A stretch of DNA of 64,000 nt from Escherichia phage ES12, in sequence record MN508614.1; one strand, 5' to 3'. The stretch's first letter is position 1; the number at the start of each line of letters is the position of its first letter. The translations under genes were made by a program, and so were the position numbers. The notes below the pieces were generated by a model. That model ran no database searches, was not told where the DNA came from, and saw only the letters and a list, made by a program, of their open reading frames with translations. Shown here one piece after another: positions 44,772-53,671 of this stretch.

Positions 44772-45950
44772 TTAAAAGTATTTTTTAAAACTCATCATAA
44801 CTTTATCATCAACATCATTATCAATCTGTGCAACAAGATAAGATGACAGTTCTACTTCTTGTGGCGCTGATTGAACATTATCAGAATTAAGATATTCACG
44901 AATCCAAGGATATGGATGTTTAACCGGAGCATCGGTAATTGGGCATGGAAGACCACACTGTTTCATACGAGATACAGTTAAGTAATCAATAAAGCTCCAC
45001 ATGCTATTTGTATTTAATCCAGGAACATCGCCATCTTTAAATAAATGAACTGCCCAATCTTTTTCTTGGCGGTTAACTTCCATGAAAATATCAACTGCTT
45101 CTTGCTCGCACTCTTGAGCAATTTTAACCCATTCATCGCCATCAGTGCCAAGTTGAAGTTGACGAATAATATATTGGGTGCCTTTAAGGTGAAGCTGCTC
45201 ATCACGAGCAATGAACTTCATAATCTTGGCATTACCTTCCATGATTTCCATGTTCTTATGGAAGTTAAAGGTACATGCGAAAGATACATAAAAACGAATA
45301 GCTTCTAAGGCATTAATAACGTGCAAACAGAGGTAAAGAGATTTCATTAACTCACGCTTCCAATATGTCTCATGCTCAATAGCATCTTCAATAACGTCTT
45401 CGTCTGCATTAATTTCTTTTTGGTATTCGATATCAGCTTTAGCGTTTTCCCAATAACGAGTTTTAATCAGAACATCATCATAATAACGTCCAATGGATTC
45501 AGCACGTTTCATAATAGCTTCATCTAATACAATCTCATCAAATACCTTTGACGGATCAGTATAAAGATTTCGCATGATATGAGTGTATGAACGACTGTGA
45601 ATAGTTTCACTAAAAGTCCATGTAGCAACCCATGTATCAAGGCTTGGGTCTGAAATTAATGACATAAGTACAGCAGACGGCGCACGACCCTGAATGCTAT
45701 CCAAAAGTGATTGATACTTCAAGTTGTTAGTAAAAATATTTTGCTGATACTGAGGAAGCTTATTAAACTGTGCAGCATCCATCATTAAGTTTACTTCTTC
45801 CGGGCGCCAGAAAAATGATAAGGACTTTTCTGTAAGTTCTTCAAATACTCGATGCCGTTGAATATCATAACGCGCAATACCAAGACCTGAACCAAAAAAC
45901 ATAGGTTCTTTTAAAACATCAACTGGATTTGTATTAAAAACTGTGCTCAT
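44772..45950 (-). CDS. nrdB: ribonucleotide reductase small subunit NrdB, uninterrupted
   Basis: 392 aa continuous ORF; no intron interruption seen. Confidence 0.93.
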   Translation of the reverse strand: MSTVFNTNPVDVLKEPMFFGSGLGIARYDIQRHRVFEELTEKSLSFFWRPEEVNLMMDAAQFNKLPQYQQNIFTNNLKYQSLLDSIQGRAPSAVLMSLISDPSLDTWVATWTFSETIHSRSYTHIMRNLYTDPSKVFDEIVLDEAIMKRAESIGRYYDDVLIKTRYWENAKADIEYQKEINADEDVIEDAIEHETYWKRELMKSLYLCLHVINALEAIRFYVSFACTFNFHKNMEIMEGNAKIMKFIARDEQLHLKGTQYIIRQLQLGTDGDEWVKIAQECEQEAVDIFMEVNRQEKDWAVHLFKDGDVPGLNTNSMWSFIDYLTVSRMKQCGLPCPITDAPVKHPYPWIREYLNSDNVQSAPQEVELSSYLVAQIDNDVDDKVMMSFKKYF

Positions 45951-46001
45951 AAATTTTCCGCTTAGTTAATAGTTGGTGACTCGTCCATGAGTCAAATTAT
46001 A

Positions 46002-48266
46002 TCATAATTTACAGGATGAACAATCTTCAGCTTTTGGAGTTTCTATTTCATAATCATCAGTACCAGAACCATCACGGGTATTATGATAATAGAAATTTTT
46101 AATGCCATAATACCATCCGTATAGCATGTCATCAATCATTATTGACATTGGAACCTTTCCTTTTGGAAAAATCTGCGGGTCATAGTATGTATTCGCTGAA
46201 GCTGATTGACATACCCATTTCAGCATAATAGCTACCTGCGTAAGATAAGGTTTATTACCTTTCTTAGCTAATTTCCATGTATAATCATAGAGGTCTATGT
46301 TATGCTCAATATTGGGCACGACTTGATTAAAGGAGCCCTCTTTTGATTCTTTAACAGAGACTGGTCCACGTGGAGGCTCGATACCGTTTGTACTGTTAGA
46401 AACTTGGGAAGATGACTCACATGGCATAAGTGCTGATAATGTGCTATTACGGATGCCAAAGAGCTTAAGGTCTTCCCGCAGCGACGACCAGTCACAAACG
46501 TATTTTGGAGCTGCGATTTGGTCAATCTTTTTATTGTACCAGTCGATAGGTAATTCGCCTCGAGACCAACGAGTGTCTGAATAATATTCGCAAGGTCCTT
46601 TTTCTTTGGCGAGCTTAATGGATGCTTTAATGAGCCCATACTGTAATCTCTCAAATAGTTCATGTGTTAAATCGTTAGCATCTTCATAAGAAGCAAAGTT
46701 ACTTGCCAGCCAAGCTGCATAGTTGGTAACACCTACACCGAGGTTACGGCGCTTTTTAGCTTTTTCTGCTTCAGGAACTGGATATCCTTGGTAATCCAAA
46801 AGATTATCAAGAGCACGAACTTGAACTTCTGCCAATTCATTAATTTTATCTTGGTCTTGCCAGTCAAAATTATCTAGTACGAATGCAGAGAGAGTACACA
46901 ATCCAATTTCAGCATCAGGACTATTCACATCATTTGTTGGAATAGCAATTTCACAACACAAGTTACTCTGACGAATAGGCGCCTTTTCACGAATAAACGG
47001 AGTATAGTTATTCGTATTATCAATGAACTGCACATAAATCCTTGCGGTTCCTGAACGTTCAGTCATGAGCAATTCAAATAGTTCACGGGCTTTAATACGC
47101 TTTTTACGAATATTAGGGTCTTTTTCTGCTGCTTCGTATAATTCACGGAAACGGTTTTGGTCTTTAAAATAAGAATAATAAAGCTCGCCACCCATTTCAT
47201 GTGGACTGAACAAAGTAATGTAATCGTTCTTTCCGAATCGTTCCATCATCAAATCATTCAGTTGAACACCATAATCCATATGACGAATGCGGTTTTCTTC
47301 TACGCCTTTGTTATTTTTCAAAACGAGAAGATTTTCAACTTCCAAATGCCAAATAGGATAATAAGCAGTAGCAGCGCCGCCACGAATTCCGCCCTGTGAG
47401 CATGATTTAACAGCAGTCTGAAAATGTTTCCAAAAAGGAATAACACCAGTATGACGCACTTCACCCATGCCAATCTTAGAACCTTCGGCACGAATCATAC
47501 CAACGTTAATACCAATTCCAGCACGTTTGGAGATATATTCAACAATTGAAGCAGAAGCCTTATTAATAGACTTTAATGAATCACCTGCCTCAATAACAAC
47601 GCATGAACTAAACTGCCGAGTTGGAGTACGGCAACCAGCCATAATAGGAGTTGGTAATGAAATCTGTCGAGTAGATACTGCTTCATAAAAACGAATAACA
47701 TGTTTTAATCTATCAACAGGTTCATCTTGATGCAATGCCATTCCAATAGTCATAAATGCAAACTGTGGAGTTTCATAAATTTGACCAGTGGTTTTATCTT
47801 TAACTAGATATTTTTCTTTTAATTGCATCGCCCCGGAATAAGTAAATTCCATATCCCGCTCGTGCTTAATTTTTGATTCTAAAAATGTAATTTCTTCTGC
47901 TGAATATTTTGACAATAATTCAGGGTCATATTTACCTTCATTTACACAGTAAGAAATATGGTCAATAAATGAACGTGGTTCATACTGCCCATAAACATGC
48001 TTACGAAGAGCAAACATTAAACAGCGTGCAGCTACATATTGATAATCAGGTTCTTCAACCGAAATAGAATTCGCAGCGGCCTTAATGACAATAGTCTGAA
48101 TATCATCAGTTGTCATTCCATCACGGAGATAAGATTTAATATTTTCATATAATTCATAAGGATCTACTGATGTTCCCTCAGCTGCCCAAGATAAAACTTT
48201 AATAATTTTTTGCGGGTCAAAGCTCTGAGAAACACCACTACTTTTGATAACATTAATTAATTGCAT
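46002..48266 (-). CDS. nrdA: ribonucleotide reductase large subunit NrdA
   Basis: 754 aa; active-site NLCCEI and C-terminal CSSC redox pair. Confidence 0.95.
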   Translation of the reverse strand: MQLINVIKSSGVSQSFDPQKIIKVLSWAAEGTSVDPYELYENIKSYLRDGMTTDDIQTIVIKAAANSISVEEPDYQYVAARCLMFALRKHVYGQYEPRSFIDHISYCVNEGKYDPELLSKYSAEEITFLESKIKHERDMEFTYSGAMQLKEKYLVKDKTTGQIYETPQFAFMTIGMALHQDEPVDRLKHVIRFYEAVSTRQISLPTPIMAGCRTPTRQFSSCVVIEAGDSLKSINKASASIVEYISKRAGIGINVGMIRAEGSKIGMGEVRHTGVIPFWKHFQTAVKSCSQGGIRGGAATAYYPIWHLEVENLLVLKNNKGVEENRIRHMDYGVQLNDLMMERFGKNDYITLFSPHEMGGELYYSYFKDQNRFRELYEAAEKDPNIRKKRIKARELFELLMTERSGTARIYVQFIDNTNNYTPFIREKAPIRQSNLCCEIAIPTNDVNSPDAEIGLCTLSAFVLDNFDWQDQDKINELAEVQVRALDNLLDYQGYPVPEAEKAKKRRNLGVGVTNYAAWLASNFASYEDANDLTHELFERLQYGLIKASIKLAKEKGPCEYYSDTRWSRGELPIDWYNKKIDQIAAPKYVCDWSSLREDLKLFGIRNSTLSALMPCESSSQVSNSTNGIEPPRGPVSVKESKEGSFNQVVPNIEHNIDLYDYTWKLAKKGNKPYLTQVAIMLKWVCQSASANTYYDPQIFPKGKVPMSIMIDDMLYGWYYGIKNFYYHNTRDGSGTDDYEIETPKAEDCSSCKL

Positions 48267-48583
48267 AAGTCCTCAACTTGAAAATCGTCTTTAAACAATC
48301 GGTTAACTATATGAGCTATTATATCACCATGACACGGCTTTGGTTTACATGTGCATCCTAGCCTCATTCCACGTAAAGGCTCTAAATGTGCTTTAGTTAT
48401 TTCTCTGGATTTAATTCGACGTATAAAATCTTTTTTGAATAATTCAATGGCAGCCTCCCGGCTGCCAGCATCTTTACCGACGTAATTTCCCCAAAATGTA
48501 CCACGGTGAATATTAACATCAAAGTCGGATTTGTATTTATTCACTACCCGACATAGACGGCCCGCGCGGTGATAATTCGGCAT
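48257..48583 (-). CDS. hypothetical protein (nrdA.1 position)
   Basis: 108 aa ORF. Confidence 0.6.
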
Positions 48584-48800
48584 ATTGTTTTTCCGTTAAA
48601 ACAGTAATATCGTAGTAACAGTCAGAAGAAGTTTTAACTGTGGAAATTTTATTATCAAAATACTCACGAGTCATTTTATGAGTATAATATTTTTTGCCAT
48701 AAATGATAATAGGCTGATTTGGTCCTGGAACTTCTAGCTCACTTGGATTAGGAAGTGTAAAAAGAACTACACCAGAAGTATCTTTAAATCGTAAAATCAT
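48537..48800 (-). CDS. hypothetical protein (nrdA.2 position)
   Basis: 87 aa ORF. Confidence 0.55.
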
Positions 48801-49657
48801 ATTGCCATTTTCCCTTTAATTGCTGGATGCGATTCATAATTTTCAAGGATAAAATCTTTCGGTTTCATGTATTCAGTTAACCAGTAAAGCTGTGTTTCGG
48901 TGTCACAATTTCCAAACTCTATAGGCCAATCAATTTTAAGTTCACATAGTTCTTTAGGCTCACGACGTAAAATTTCTTTACATTGCTCAGTATGATTCAT
49001 ATAGATGTGAGTATTACCACCAGAAAATATCAAATCTCCTGGGATAAGATTACACATCTTAGCCACAATATGCGTCAAGGCAGCGTACGAGGCAATGTTG
49101 AATGGCAATCCCAAGAAAACATCTACACTTCTTTGGTACCATTGTAAATCAAGATAACCATTACGCACATTAAACTGATAGAACATATGACAGGGCGGTA
49201 ATGCCATTTGATTGATTTCAGCTGGATTCCATGCTGAAACGATTTGACGTCGATCAGTTGGTAATTTTTTAATACGATCAATAGTTTCAACTAATTGATC
49301 CACACCGCCGAAATCACGCCATTGTTTACCGTATATAGGACCAAGTTCACCACTATGATATCCTAGGTCTTTAGCCTGGTTTTCATAGTTATCGTCCCAA
49401 ATAGTTTTACCTTGAATAAGACTACCATGTGTGCGAAGACGTAAATCATTAACATTGGTAGAACCGGAAATAAACCATAGAAGCTCAGCAATGCATGCAT
49501 TCCATGCAAGCTTCTTAGTTGTTACCGCAGGAAAACCTTTAGTTAAATCCCAACGTAATTTAGTACCGAACAAAGCAATTGTTCCTGTGCCTGTTCGGTC
49601 ATCGGTTTCATAGCCATTTTCAAAAATGTCTTTAATTAAATCTTGGTATTGTTTCAT
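48797..49657 (-). CDS. td: thymidylate synthase, uninterrupted
   Basis: 286 aa continuous ORF; catalytic Cys motif [10 protein letters not shown]; no intron. Confidence 0.95.
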
Positions 49658-49702
49658 TTAGTACCTTATATAAATTATAATACATTTTATGAAGCTAAAT
49701 AA

Positions 49703-50050
49703 TCAATACGGTTTAGCATCAAATTTTCTCTCAATTTCAGGCGTGAAATATAATTCTTTACCGCGTTTGGAAAAGCGACCAATAATATGATAATTATTCT
49801 CATCAAACGTGATATTACCAATATCCATAGCTTTCAACCAAATATCGATATTTCTATCCAGCTTTATGTCAAAATTCCAATACAGAGAACTATTACCGAA
49901 AATACTGCAAGCGGATTCAGTGAAACAACTGCTATAAATCTTGTCTTTAGGAACTACTAATTGATAGACACCTTTAATAAACTGAGGACCCTGCCACTTT
50001 GGCTGTTTCGTGTCTTTTTCTAATAGAATAGGGTAATAATTAAAATTCAT
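49703..50050 (-). CDS. hypothetical protein between frd and td (about 115 aa)
   Basis: Track ORF 49703-50062 uses a GTG start; first ATG gives MNFNYYPILLEKD...; no recognisable motif. Confidence 0.55.
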   Translation of the reverse strand: MNFNYYPILLEKDTKQPKWQGPQFIKGVYQLVVPKDKIYSSCFTESACSIFGNSSLYWNFDIKLDRNIDIWLKAMDIGNITFDENNYHIIGRFSKRGKELYFTPEIERKFDAKPY

Positions 50051-50070
50051 ATTTTCCGCCACGTGTTATT

Positions 50071-50900
<830 letters not shown>

Positions 50901-52073: not shown

Positions 52074-52979
52074 TTAAAGGTCATTCAAAAGGTCATCCAG
52101 GTCTGTGTCATCAGCACTAGATGAACTGCCAGAGCTTGAGCTCATAAAATCATCTTCAGTTTTTGTATTGAAGTCATCAACATTGAATGCATCCAAATCA
52201 TCAGCAACTTTATCAGCTTTCTTAGCAGCAGTTGCAGCAGCACCGCCCATCACAGCAGTTCCCATAACTTGACCGAATTTAGTGCTCAGTTCTTCAAACG
52301 ATTTGAATTTATCTTTAGAAGTCATTTCAGAAAGGTCAACCATTTGTTCGAACAGTTCTTTCTGGAAAGATTCATCGTCAATGTTTGGAATCGCAGATTG
52401 ATTCAGGAATTTAGATTCGTCGTAGTTACTAAATCCAGAAACCTGTTTAACTTTCAGTACAAAGTTAGCACCTTCCCACGGACAAGTTACATCAACCGGA
52501 GTTTCACCCATTTCAACATCAACCGCAATCATCGCGTTGATTTTATCCCAGATTTTCTTACCGAAACGATATTTAAATACTTTACCTTCATTTTCTGGAG
52601 CAGCTGGGTCTTTTACAACAAGAATATTAGCCCAGTAAGAAGTTTTACGTTTAACAAGACTGTACTCTTTATTGTCAGTGTTGTACAGATCATTTTTACT
52701 GATGTACTGACATACTGGACAAGAATCGTAATCACCATGGGTAGATGAACATGTTTCAATATACCATTTACCATTTTTCTTGAAACCGTGATTTACAAGA
52801 ATTGCGAATGGTGCTTGTTCATCATTTTTAGACGGAAGAAAACGAATTACTGCTTGACCGTTACCCGCATTATCGAGTTTCAGTTTCCACTCGCCTTTAT
52901 CTTCAGAAGAAAAACCTTTATTGCCATTCAGTTTAGCCATTTGTGCAGCAAGTTCAGCAGTAGATTTACGTTTAAACAT
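52074..52979 (-). CDS. 32: single-stranded DNA-binding protein gp32
   Basis: 301 aa, recognised as T4 gp32 ([36 protein letters not shown]...; acidic C-terminus). Confidence 0.97.
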
Positions 52980-53060
52980 TTTATTTCCTTTTTAATTTAA
53001 TTTAATTTAATTAACAGTTGGTGCTATGACACTTTACCTCATAGCTGGCATAATTCGCAA
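52980..53060 (-). promoter_or_regulatory. gene 32 translational operator (UUAAA repeats plus upstream pseudoknot-forming hairpin)
   Basis: Minus-strand RNA ...GCUAUGAGGUAAAGUGUCAUAGC...UUAAUUAAAUUAAAUUAAAUUAAAAAGGAAAUAAAAUG; matches the known T4 gp32 autoregulatory site architecture. Confidence 0.75.
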
Positions 53061-53671
53061 TACTCTGGGTCTTCGAGAGGTATCCAACCTGAGTTGAAAT
53101 ACTTTACCATCGATTTAGCAGTTGTATCAGTTATATTTATATTACCTTTAACTCTTCGCCATCCAGGAGTTTTACCGTACAGATTAGAGGATAATAATAA
53201 CACATAATTCTCGTAAGCAATATGAGATAATTTCCAAGACTCTATATTAGCTCGTGATGTTTTCCAAGGTCTAAAATCGTCACGGTTCATATAATTAGCC
53301 AATCTCATATGCTCTCTAACTTCCGGGTCTTTGGCTGGATGAGTTTCACCACTCACACCAAATCCACCACCAGCATATACCAGATTAAAATAGTCTGGAT
53401 TATCTCTGGCATTTACTTCAAGTTGGTATTTTCGTTCTGCTTCAATAACATCCAAGTCATCATCAATTTGAATTATTTTAACGCTCGGTTTTTGAAGCAT
53501 TAGCGCATTCAAAAATCTTTTTTGTTTACATGAGCTCCAGTATTCCTTTCCGGAAGAGTCATATATTATTCCATTCTCAAATGAGCAATTTAATTTACTA
53601 CCGATATAGTAGTATGGCGGAGTCTTATTTTTGACACGGTCTTCAAATGTAAACCAATATACTATATTCAT
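53039..53671 (-). mobile_element. segG: freestanding GIY-YIG-like homing endonuclease (SegG-like)
   Basis: 210 aa; N-terminal IVYWFTF ... YYYIGSK GIY-YIG-like motif; lies between 59 and 32 as T4 segG. Confidence 0.7.

Follow-up and report, generated by a model that had tools for sequence, protein, structure and literature searches.

The analyzed stretch (hereafter the window) comprises 64,000 nucleotides of Escherichia phage ES12 (MN508614.1). Its minus strand carries, in this order, gene 59, segG, gene 32, homologues of frd.3, frd.2, and frd.1, an ORF of 81 amino acids, frd, the ORF studied here (ORF-A), and td, followed by nrdA.2, nrdA.1, nrdA, and an uninterrupted nrdB (Table 1). According to the ORF list and the raw sequence, frd and td are separated by 413 bp (49658-50070), and this interval contains a single long ORF, ORF-A, which encodes 115 residues on the minus strand. 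The initial annotation had described ~410 bp with an ORF of ~115 residues between the two genes, and both the sizes and the quoted protein agreed with our result. The product begins with MNFNYYPILLEKDTKQPKWQGPQF; translation starts at an ATG at 50050, preceded by the plausible Shine-Dalgarno (SD) sequence GGCGGAAAAT, and stops at the TGA at 49703-49705. An in-frame GTG is also present upstream at 50062, and a start at this codon would give a protein of 119 residues.

The same annotation had stated that frd and td overlap in T4. This was correct: in the T4 genome (NC_000866), the end of the frd CDS, at 145109, and the start of the td CDS, at 145112, form a 4-nt ATGA overlap with no ORF between them, so that a homologue of ORF-A is absent from the T4 junction. 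The flanking genes and their orientation are the same in this textbook arrangement and in the window phage. In the latter, however, frd and td lie apart, and td has its own SD sequence and a candidate middle promoter upstream.

Table 1. Positions of the features discussed in the text (window coordinates unless a locus is named).
Feature	Position	Strand	Remarks
td (thymidylate synthase)	48797-49657	minus	286 aa, intronless/uninterrupted; downstream flank of ORF-A
9-bp direct repeat TAAATGAAA, downstream copy	49652-49660	minus	spans td start codon
ORF-A-to-td spacer	49658-49702	minus	45 nt; almost invariant in A-type Tequatroviruses; td SD AAGG
Candidate MotA-box and -10 element GCTTCATAAAATGTATTATAATTT	49672-49695	minus	about 15 nt upstream of td start
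ORF-A CDS	49703-50050	minus	115 codons and TGA stop; PHROG 1928; same protein as RB32ORF229c
frd-to-ORF-A spacer AATAACACGTGGCGGAAAAT	50051-50070	minus	20 nt; includes SD-like GGCGGA
9-bp direct repeat TAAATGAAA, upstream copy	50069-50077	minus	spans frd stop codon
frd (dihydrofolate reductase)	50071-50655	minus	194 aa; upstream flank of ORF-A
81-aa ORF	50655-50900	minus	between frd and frd.1; PHROG 3183 (unknown function), E value of 1e-42
gene 32	52074-52979	minus	
segG	53039-53671	minus	210 aa, between gene 32 and gene 59; protein 100% identical to T4 SegG
ORF-C	L032:998-1204		207-nt ORF
ORF-C	L033:2698-2904		207-nt ORF
Outgroup counterpart of ORF-C	L026:4670-4879		69-aa ORF

ORF-A matched PHROG 1928 ("unknown function") with an E value of 1e-35, residues 4-111 aligning with positions 2-125 of the 126-position profile. 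At the protein level, tblastn detected it in 580 phage records with one copy per record, and 362 of these, among them T2, RB14, RB10, AR1, PP01, and phiD1, were at least 90% identical to ORF-A. About 360 Tequatrovirus records, T2, T6, RB14, and RB32 included, showed 93-100% identity. The protein was 98% identical to ORF229c of RB14/RB32 and to those of T2, AR1, RB10, and others, and the 1-kb frd-td region was 100% identical to those of ES26, WilhelmHis (Bas35), and UTI-E2. ORF-A was not found to be interrupted in relatives. Pairwise comparison of Tequatrovirus copies gave dN/dS values of 0.03-0.08 at dS values of 0.2-0.9, indicating strong purifying selection on the reading frame. A HMMER search run exhaustively against 1.84 billion cluster representatives retrieved only 41 clusters, which consist of single-domain proteins of 95-139 residues except for two short fragments (37 and 49 residues), and the family is restricted to T4-like phages. 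It is virtually certain that ORF-A is a real, conserved gene.

As an entity, ORF-A is already known as the GenBank hypothetical protein RB32ORF229c and as PHROG 1928, and the flanking repeat is also on record. The RB14 GenBank entry reads "RB32ORF229c hypothetical protein; flanked by 9 bp repeat"; both ORF and repeats had thus already been noticed when RB32/RB14 were annotated. ORF-A is a member of this family, from which no sequence difference separates it, and it occupies the location after frd and before td that characterizes the family. Literature searches by locus tags and PHROG id returned no paper on ORF-A, a search for a gene "absent in T4" returned nothing relevant to it, and a review of T4-related genomes does not discuss it. 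What is new here is the paralogy of ORF-A with a neighboring gene (ORF-B), the polymorphism of the frd-td slot with common breakpoints, the estimate of selection, and a confident OB-like model without solved relatives.

In at least nine further T4-like genera, frd is immediately followed by a homologue with 26-66% identity to ORF-A, and all 218 tblastn matches with <60% identity were in such genera. They include those of Kanagawavirus (Q7622 and PEi20), Jiaodavirus (PKO111), Marfavirus (PWKp16), Gelderlandvirus (S16), Moonvirus (Moon), Winklervirus (CBH8), and Kagamiyamavirus (EcS1), as well as ORF-A immediately downstream of frd in the Mosigvirus NHEP29. At every inspected locus, the homologue lay directly 3' of frd, usually overlapping the frd stop codon. 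Since ORF-A overlaps the stop and start codons of its neighbors in most genera, it is probably translationally coupled to them there. Even P0042, among the weakest matches (E value of 2e-6), carried the homologue between the genes for dihydrofolate reductase (DHFR) and thymidylate synthase (TS), adjoining gp59 and gp32. In most genera, a second ORF of 116-124 residues, ORF-B, follows ORF-A, and a third small ORF (ORF-C, see below) is often present as well. ORF-B is a paralogue of ORF-A (hhalign probability 99.4%, E value of 9e-22), and the S16 ORF-B also matches PHROG 1928 (E value of 5e-38). A profile search of the window and of 13 kb of T4 found no paralogue of ORF-A. Two uncultivated T4-like contigs showed the order frd-A-B-(69-aa ORF)-td and encoded ORF-A proteins 63-66% identical to that of the window. 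Compared with the closest outgroup (L026), identity was 63% for ORF-A, 46% for frd, 82% for td, and 64% for gp32. The divergence of ORF-A is thus within the range of its flanking genes, as vertical descent predicts.

The contents of the frd-td slot within Tequatrovirus were surveyed in 60 records drawn at even spacing from the 514 that match the T4 junction flanks; 57 of the 60 were classified by the span of the match. ORF-A occupied the slot in 40 of the 57 (about 70%), adding about 416 bp to the T4 junction, and this share agrees with the 362 records obtained by tblastn. A different ORF of 207 nt (ORF-C), adding about 206 bp, was present in 12 (about 21%), and the remaining 5 (about 9%) were empty and of the T4 type, with nothing added. 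T4, RB69, and about 30% of Tequatroviruses do without ORF-A. ORF-C is unrelated to ORF-A, encodes a basic protein of 68 residues (MSNKLKVKDVPNAMALF..., PHROG 9550), and overlaps frd at its stop (ATGA) and td at its start (TAATG). The 69-aa ORF located after ORF-A and ORF-B in the uncultivated outgroup L026 is 81% identical to ORF-C. Because ORF-C is orthologous to a member of the outgroup array, different Tequatroviruses keep different members of one ancestral array. Since slot content varies among close relatives, ORF-A is dispensable and, in that sense, accessory. The earlier description of ORF-A as an accessory gene thus stands as far as variable presence and dispensability are concerned, but not in regard to its origin, as ORF-A belongs to an old conserved locus of which T4 appears to be a deletion variant.

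The state of td was also recorded. In the inspected C-type and empty-type phages (PYps35T, fPS-2, ECO07P3, FL18, and T4; L032-L036), td is split, with an exon 1 of 552 nt. A-type phages are mixed: td is intronless in the window and RB14, split in T6, and annotated as td-A in PST. Strict mutual exclusion of ORF-A and the td intron/I-TevI was considered and rejected, as T6 has both and PST (td-A) apparently does too. On this small sample, it is conceivable that the spread of the junction types is affected by co-conversion during homing of the td intron, which lies about 550 bp away.

The breakpoints of the junction variants were then compared. The ORF-A cassette is flanked by the two copies of the 9-bp repeat, which extend over TAAATGAAAYAAYAC as imperfect direct repeats with 13 of 15 positions identical. 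Removal of the 417 bp between the two copies from the window yields exactly the ATGA junction of T4, and a single copy is present at the empty site. The left breakpoint is the same in all variants, with GTATATAAATGA followed by AACAATACC in T4, GCAATAAA in the C type, ATTTTAAT in NHEP29, and AATAACACGTGGCGGAAAATATGAATTTT in the window, and the breakpoint motif TAAATGA(A) is common to all of them. The independent T4-type junctions of FL18, ECO07P3, and RB69 (Mosigvirus) also share this breakpoint.

The ends of frd and ORF-A were inspected as well. The C-terminus of Frd is set by a run of three or five A residues, a 2-nt difference between the window (50069-50079) and loci L028/L030 (1465-1480). 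Phages with the A3 run (the window phage, T4, and T6) have an Frd that terminates in VYK, at 194 residues in the window as in T4. With the A5 run of RB14 and ESh36, Frd gains 11 codons, ends in VYKNEI(T/P)RGGKYEF at 205 residues, and overlaps the ORF-A start by 11 nt. In the spacer between ORF-A and td, the candidate element GCTTCA-N12-TAATTT (or N10-TATAAT) fits the MotA-box and -10 pattern of T4 middle promoters. The pattern is enriched in the window, with 24 occurrences where 9.4 would be expected, and td may therefore have its own middle promoter in A-type phages. The junctions of T4, the C type, and NHEP29 lack the candidate. A sigma-70 and terminator scan of the frd-td interval revealed no convincing element and no terminator-like hairpin, and Rfam covariance models gave one sub-threshold match to an unrelated family in this interval (21.8 bits against a gathering score of 50).

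We next turned to the protein, which is roughly 13 kDa and belongs to a mildly basic family (median pI 8.7). An AF2 model built from a 46-sequence alignment reached a pLDDT of 91.5 and a pTM of 0.85, with strands at residues 6-12, 27-34, 38-40, 48-50, and 62-64, a helix at 68-76, and strands at 80-82, 86-96, and 99-104. The predicted order strand-strand-strand-helix-strand-strand suggests an OB-like barrel topology in a single domain. Candidate structural counterparts are the OB-fold nucleic-acid-binding domains (RecO N-terminal domain, S1, Teb1/RPA-like, PriB/SSB, and HIN). W19, G91, K95, and G97 are invariant over both the A and B subfamilies, and Q16, G27, Y29, F93, and F102 are nearly so; residues conserved in both paralogues are aromatic, basic, or glycine, without a catalytic constellation of His, Cys, or acidic residues. 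The conservation of W19, Y29, F93, and K95 is at most suggestive of an oligonucleotide- or oligosaccharide-binding face of the OB type (beta-2/beta-3/L12/L45). Pfam searches with ORF-A and 10 homologues (an 11-member alignment) at E values up to 1 gave only noise, such as HlyIII at 0.04; an NCBIfam search with ORF-A gave nothing, and a PDB sequence-profile search with the family gave nothing below an E value of 0.01. Foldseek against BFVD returned only uncharacterized T4-like phage proteins, which are members of the family itself.

Taken together, ORF-A is probably a vertically conserved early-region gene of T4-like phages that belongs to an array subject to loss and encodes a binding protein. 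ORF-A lies within the prereplicative frd-td cluster; its product would be made together with DHFR and TS from one prereplicative transcription unit and would act as a non-enzymatic binder of nucleic acid, a nucleotide, or a partner protein; we put the chances that it is a non-catalytic binder at about even. The strong purifying selection indicates that ORF-A is useful in nature, and T4, which does without it, indicates that it is dispensable in the laboratory. A role tied specifically to the thymidylate/dNTP module is a rather doubtful further step. A more specific version is speculative and improbable: ORF-A and ORF-B could serve the T-even thymidylate/dNTP-synthesis machinery as dedicated OB-like subunits without catalytic activity. 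As such, they might tether DHFR to TS, a non-covalent equivalent of the DHFR-TS fusion in protists, or they might tether DHFR/TS to single-stranded DNA or gp32 at replication forks. If this is true, T4, the model behind the dNTP-synthetase-complex concept, would be a natural deletion mutant for ORF-A and ORF-B.

The strongest competing explanation, itself unlikely, is that ORF-A is an accessory host-takeover or anti-defense effector that sits in a plastic frd-td slot and has nothing to do with DHFR or TS function. It would then be a small early protein hitting a host factor or defense system, for example one acting on nucleotide pools. The slot content, which differs between close relatives (A, C, or nothing) in a manner typical for accessory genes, fits this explanation, as do the small, single-domain, phage-restricted protein, its dispensability in T4, and the possible lateral exchange of ORF-A between genera. 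Many anti-defense genes are sporadic and fast-evolving. The ORF-A family contrasts with this pattern, being unusually stable in position, conserved across at least ten genera, and under strong purifying selection, and it shows no similarity to any defense-related model or characterized protein. The initial annotation had pointed to defense or anti-defense cargo, for which we obtained no positive evidence: PADLOC, NCBIfam, Pfam, and PDB sequence and fold searches were all empty. No PADLOC family matched ORF-A, PADLOC covering defense systems rather than phage anti-defense proteins. As a host-directed effector, ORF-A would be one more early accessory gene among many. If the favored binding protein instead binds DHFR, TS, or replication proteins, it would be a new component of the dNTP-synthetase complex beyond the reach of T4 genetics.

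With regard to the direction of change, the empty junction of T4 is very likely a secondary loss. The TAAATGA(A) breakpoint found in all variants is most simply explained by a secondary deletion in T4. Loss is also the most economical explanation because the ORF-A family is widely distributed phylogenetically, because both ORF-A and ORF-C are orthologous to the outgroup array, because ORF-A is the majority state within Tequatrovirus, and because the "repeat" is the stop/start overlap motif of consecutive genes. Most simply, the ancestral order would have been frd-A-B-(C)-td, an array of up to three small genes, from which gene-precise deletions or exchanges of cassettes at the repeated TAAATGA(A) would have removed different members in different lineages. 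The window phage would have retained ORF-A and other Tequatroviruses ORF-C, while T4 and RB69 would have retained neither, which would have created the frd/td ATGA overlap. The opposite polarity, in which T4 is ancestral and ORF-A was recently inserted with target duplication into overlapping frd and td from a related donor phage, is improbable. It would account for the imperfect repeats around the cassette (13/15) and the single copy at the empty site, and the upstream copy is missing in outgroups L026 and L027; mini-circle-mediated cassette movement is moreover documented in T4-type phages (PMC2839356). However, members of the ORF-A family lie at this one position in every genus examined, ORF-A is present in about 70% of Tequatroviruses, the other occupant of the slot, ORF-C, likewise has its orthologue in the outgroup array, and a repeat that is a common stop/start overlap motif pre-exists without insertion. 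The proposal that ORF-A was inserted into an otherwise strictly conserved operon was therefore not sustained, as the family follows frd across genera and diverges as its flanks do.

One observation that favors cassette movement comes from NHEP29 (PQ511150, L029), an RB69-like Mosigvirus whose Frd and Td are 97% and 98% identical to those of RB69. NHEP29 has ORF-A, flanked by TAAATGAA repeats, where the RB69 junction is empty, and its ORF-A is nearer the Tequatrovirus copy than its flanks are: against the window, dS was 0.62 for ORF-A (115 codons), 1.09 for td, and 2.0 for frd. These values give a modest hint that the cassette can move between lineages, including between genera. In T4-type phages, recombination at short repeats with circular intermediates has been documented for both loss and gain of small ORFs (PMC2839356). 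PeSL/mini-circle shuffling (Arbiol et al. 2010, PMC2839356; Comeau et al. 2014, PMC4122927) likewise leaves small non-essential ORFs present, absent, or replaced with single-gene precision, and in both that system and the frd-td slot short direct repeats bound ORFs that vary in close relatives. The PeSL system, however, is a promoter and stem-loop cassette, whereas the frd-td repeat is an 8-9-bp stop/start overlap motif (TAAATGAA). By analogy, excision of a circle and its reintegration would explain both the losses in T4 and RB69 and the possible gain in NHEP29.

In the records of two BASEL phages, WilhelmHis and TadeuszReichstein, the GenBank product name of ORF-A is "putative homing endonuclease", and seg and mob genes are typically found in such a setting, present in some phages and absent from others between two conserved genes. 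Indeed, T4 seg/mob genes such as segG and mobE of the same region resemble ORF-A in lying between conserved nucleotide-metabolism genes and in being variably present in T-even phages. Unlike them, ORF-A has no nuclease motif or fold, a deeply conserved position, and an adjoining paralogue. None of the 11 family members had a Pfam match to HNH, GIY-YIG, LAGLIDADG, or PD-(D/E)xK, confirming the earlier remark that ORF-A carries no GIY-YIG or HNH signature. In addition, the W, Y, F, K, and G conserved family-wide are no catalytic set, the predicted fold is OB-like rather than nuclease-like, and 115 residues are fewer than the 141-245 of the characterized T4 seg/mob enzymes of the region. The distribution is syntenic and deep, not sporadic: ten genera or more have the gene at this site, its identity rises and falls with that of the flanks, and lateral exchange is only weakly hinted at, in NHEP29. 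On motif, fold, and distribution, we rejected the identification of ORF-A as a free-standing homing endonuclease as highly improbable. The possibility that ORF-A is spurious and the spacer non-coding, for which nothing speaks beyond the lack of a known domain, is effectively refuted by the dN/dS of 0.03-0.08, protein conservation down to 26% identity with invariant columns, and the confident AF2 fold.

These results correct a T4-centered view of the locus: among T4-like phages, the textbook frd/td overlap is exceptional, and in most of them the two genes are separated by between one and three additional small genes. The ORF-A family is strongly constrained and always lies between two enzymes of the thymidylate cycle, and the locus provides a clean natural example of gene-precise cassette loss or exchange at start/stop repeats of 8-9 bp.

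Several further differences from T4 were observed around the slot. The minus-strand region at 44772-49657 lacks the mobile elements that T4 has there. Neither td (286 aa) nor nrdB (392 aa) is interrupted, so both genes lack an intron, and I-TevI and I-TevIII are missing; as the nrdA-nrdB gap is only about 50 nt, there is no mobE or nrdB.1. T4 SegG is a GIY-YIG homing endonuclease. The window phage carries T4's segG 3 kb away, yet has kept ORF-A and has no T4-type frd/td junction. In WilhelmHis, which is identical over the compared 1-kb frd-td stretch, the gap between gene 32 and gene 59 has no annotated gene. Upstream of frd, the 81-aa ORF had no match in Pfam, NCBIfam, or PADLOC; it corresponds to RB14ncORF233c and is also found in WilhelmHis, T6, and PYps35T, and at its position T4 has only a 71-bp gap.
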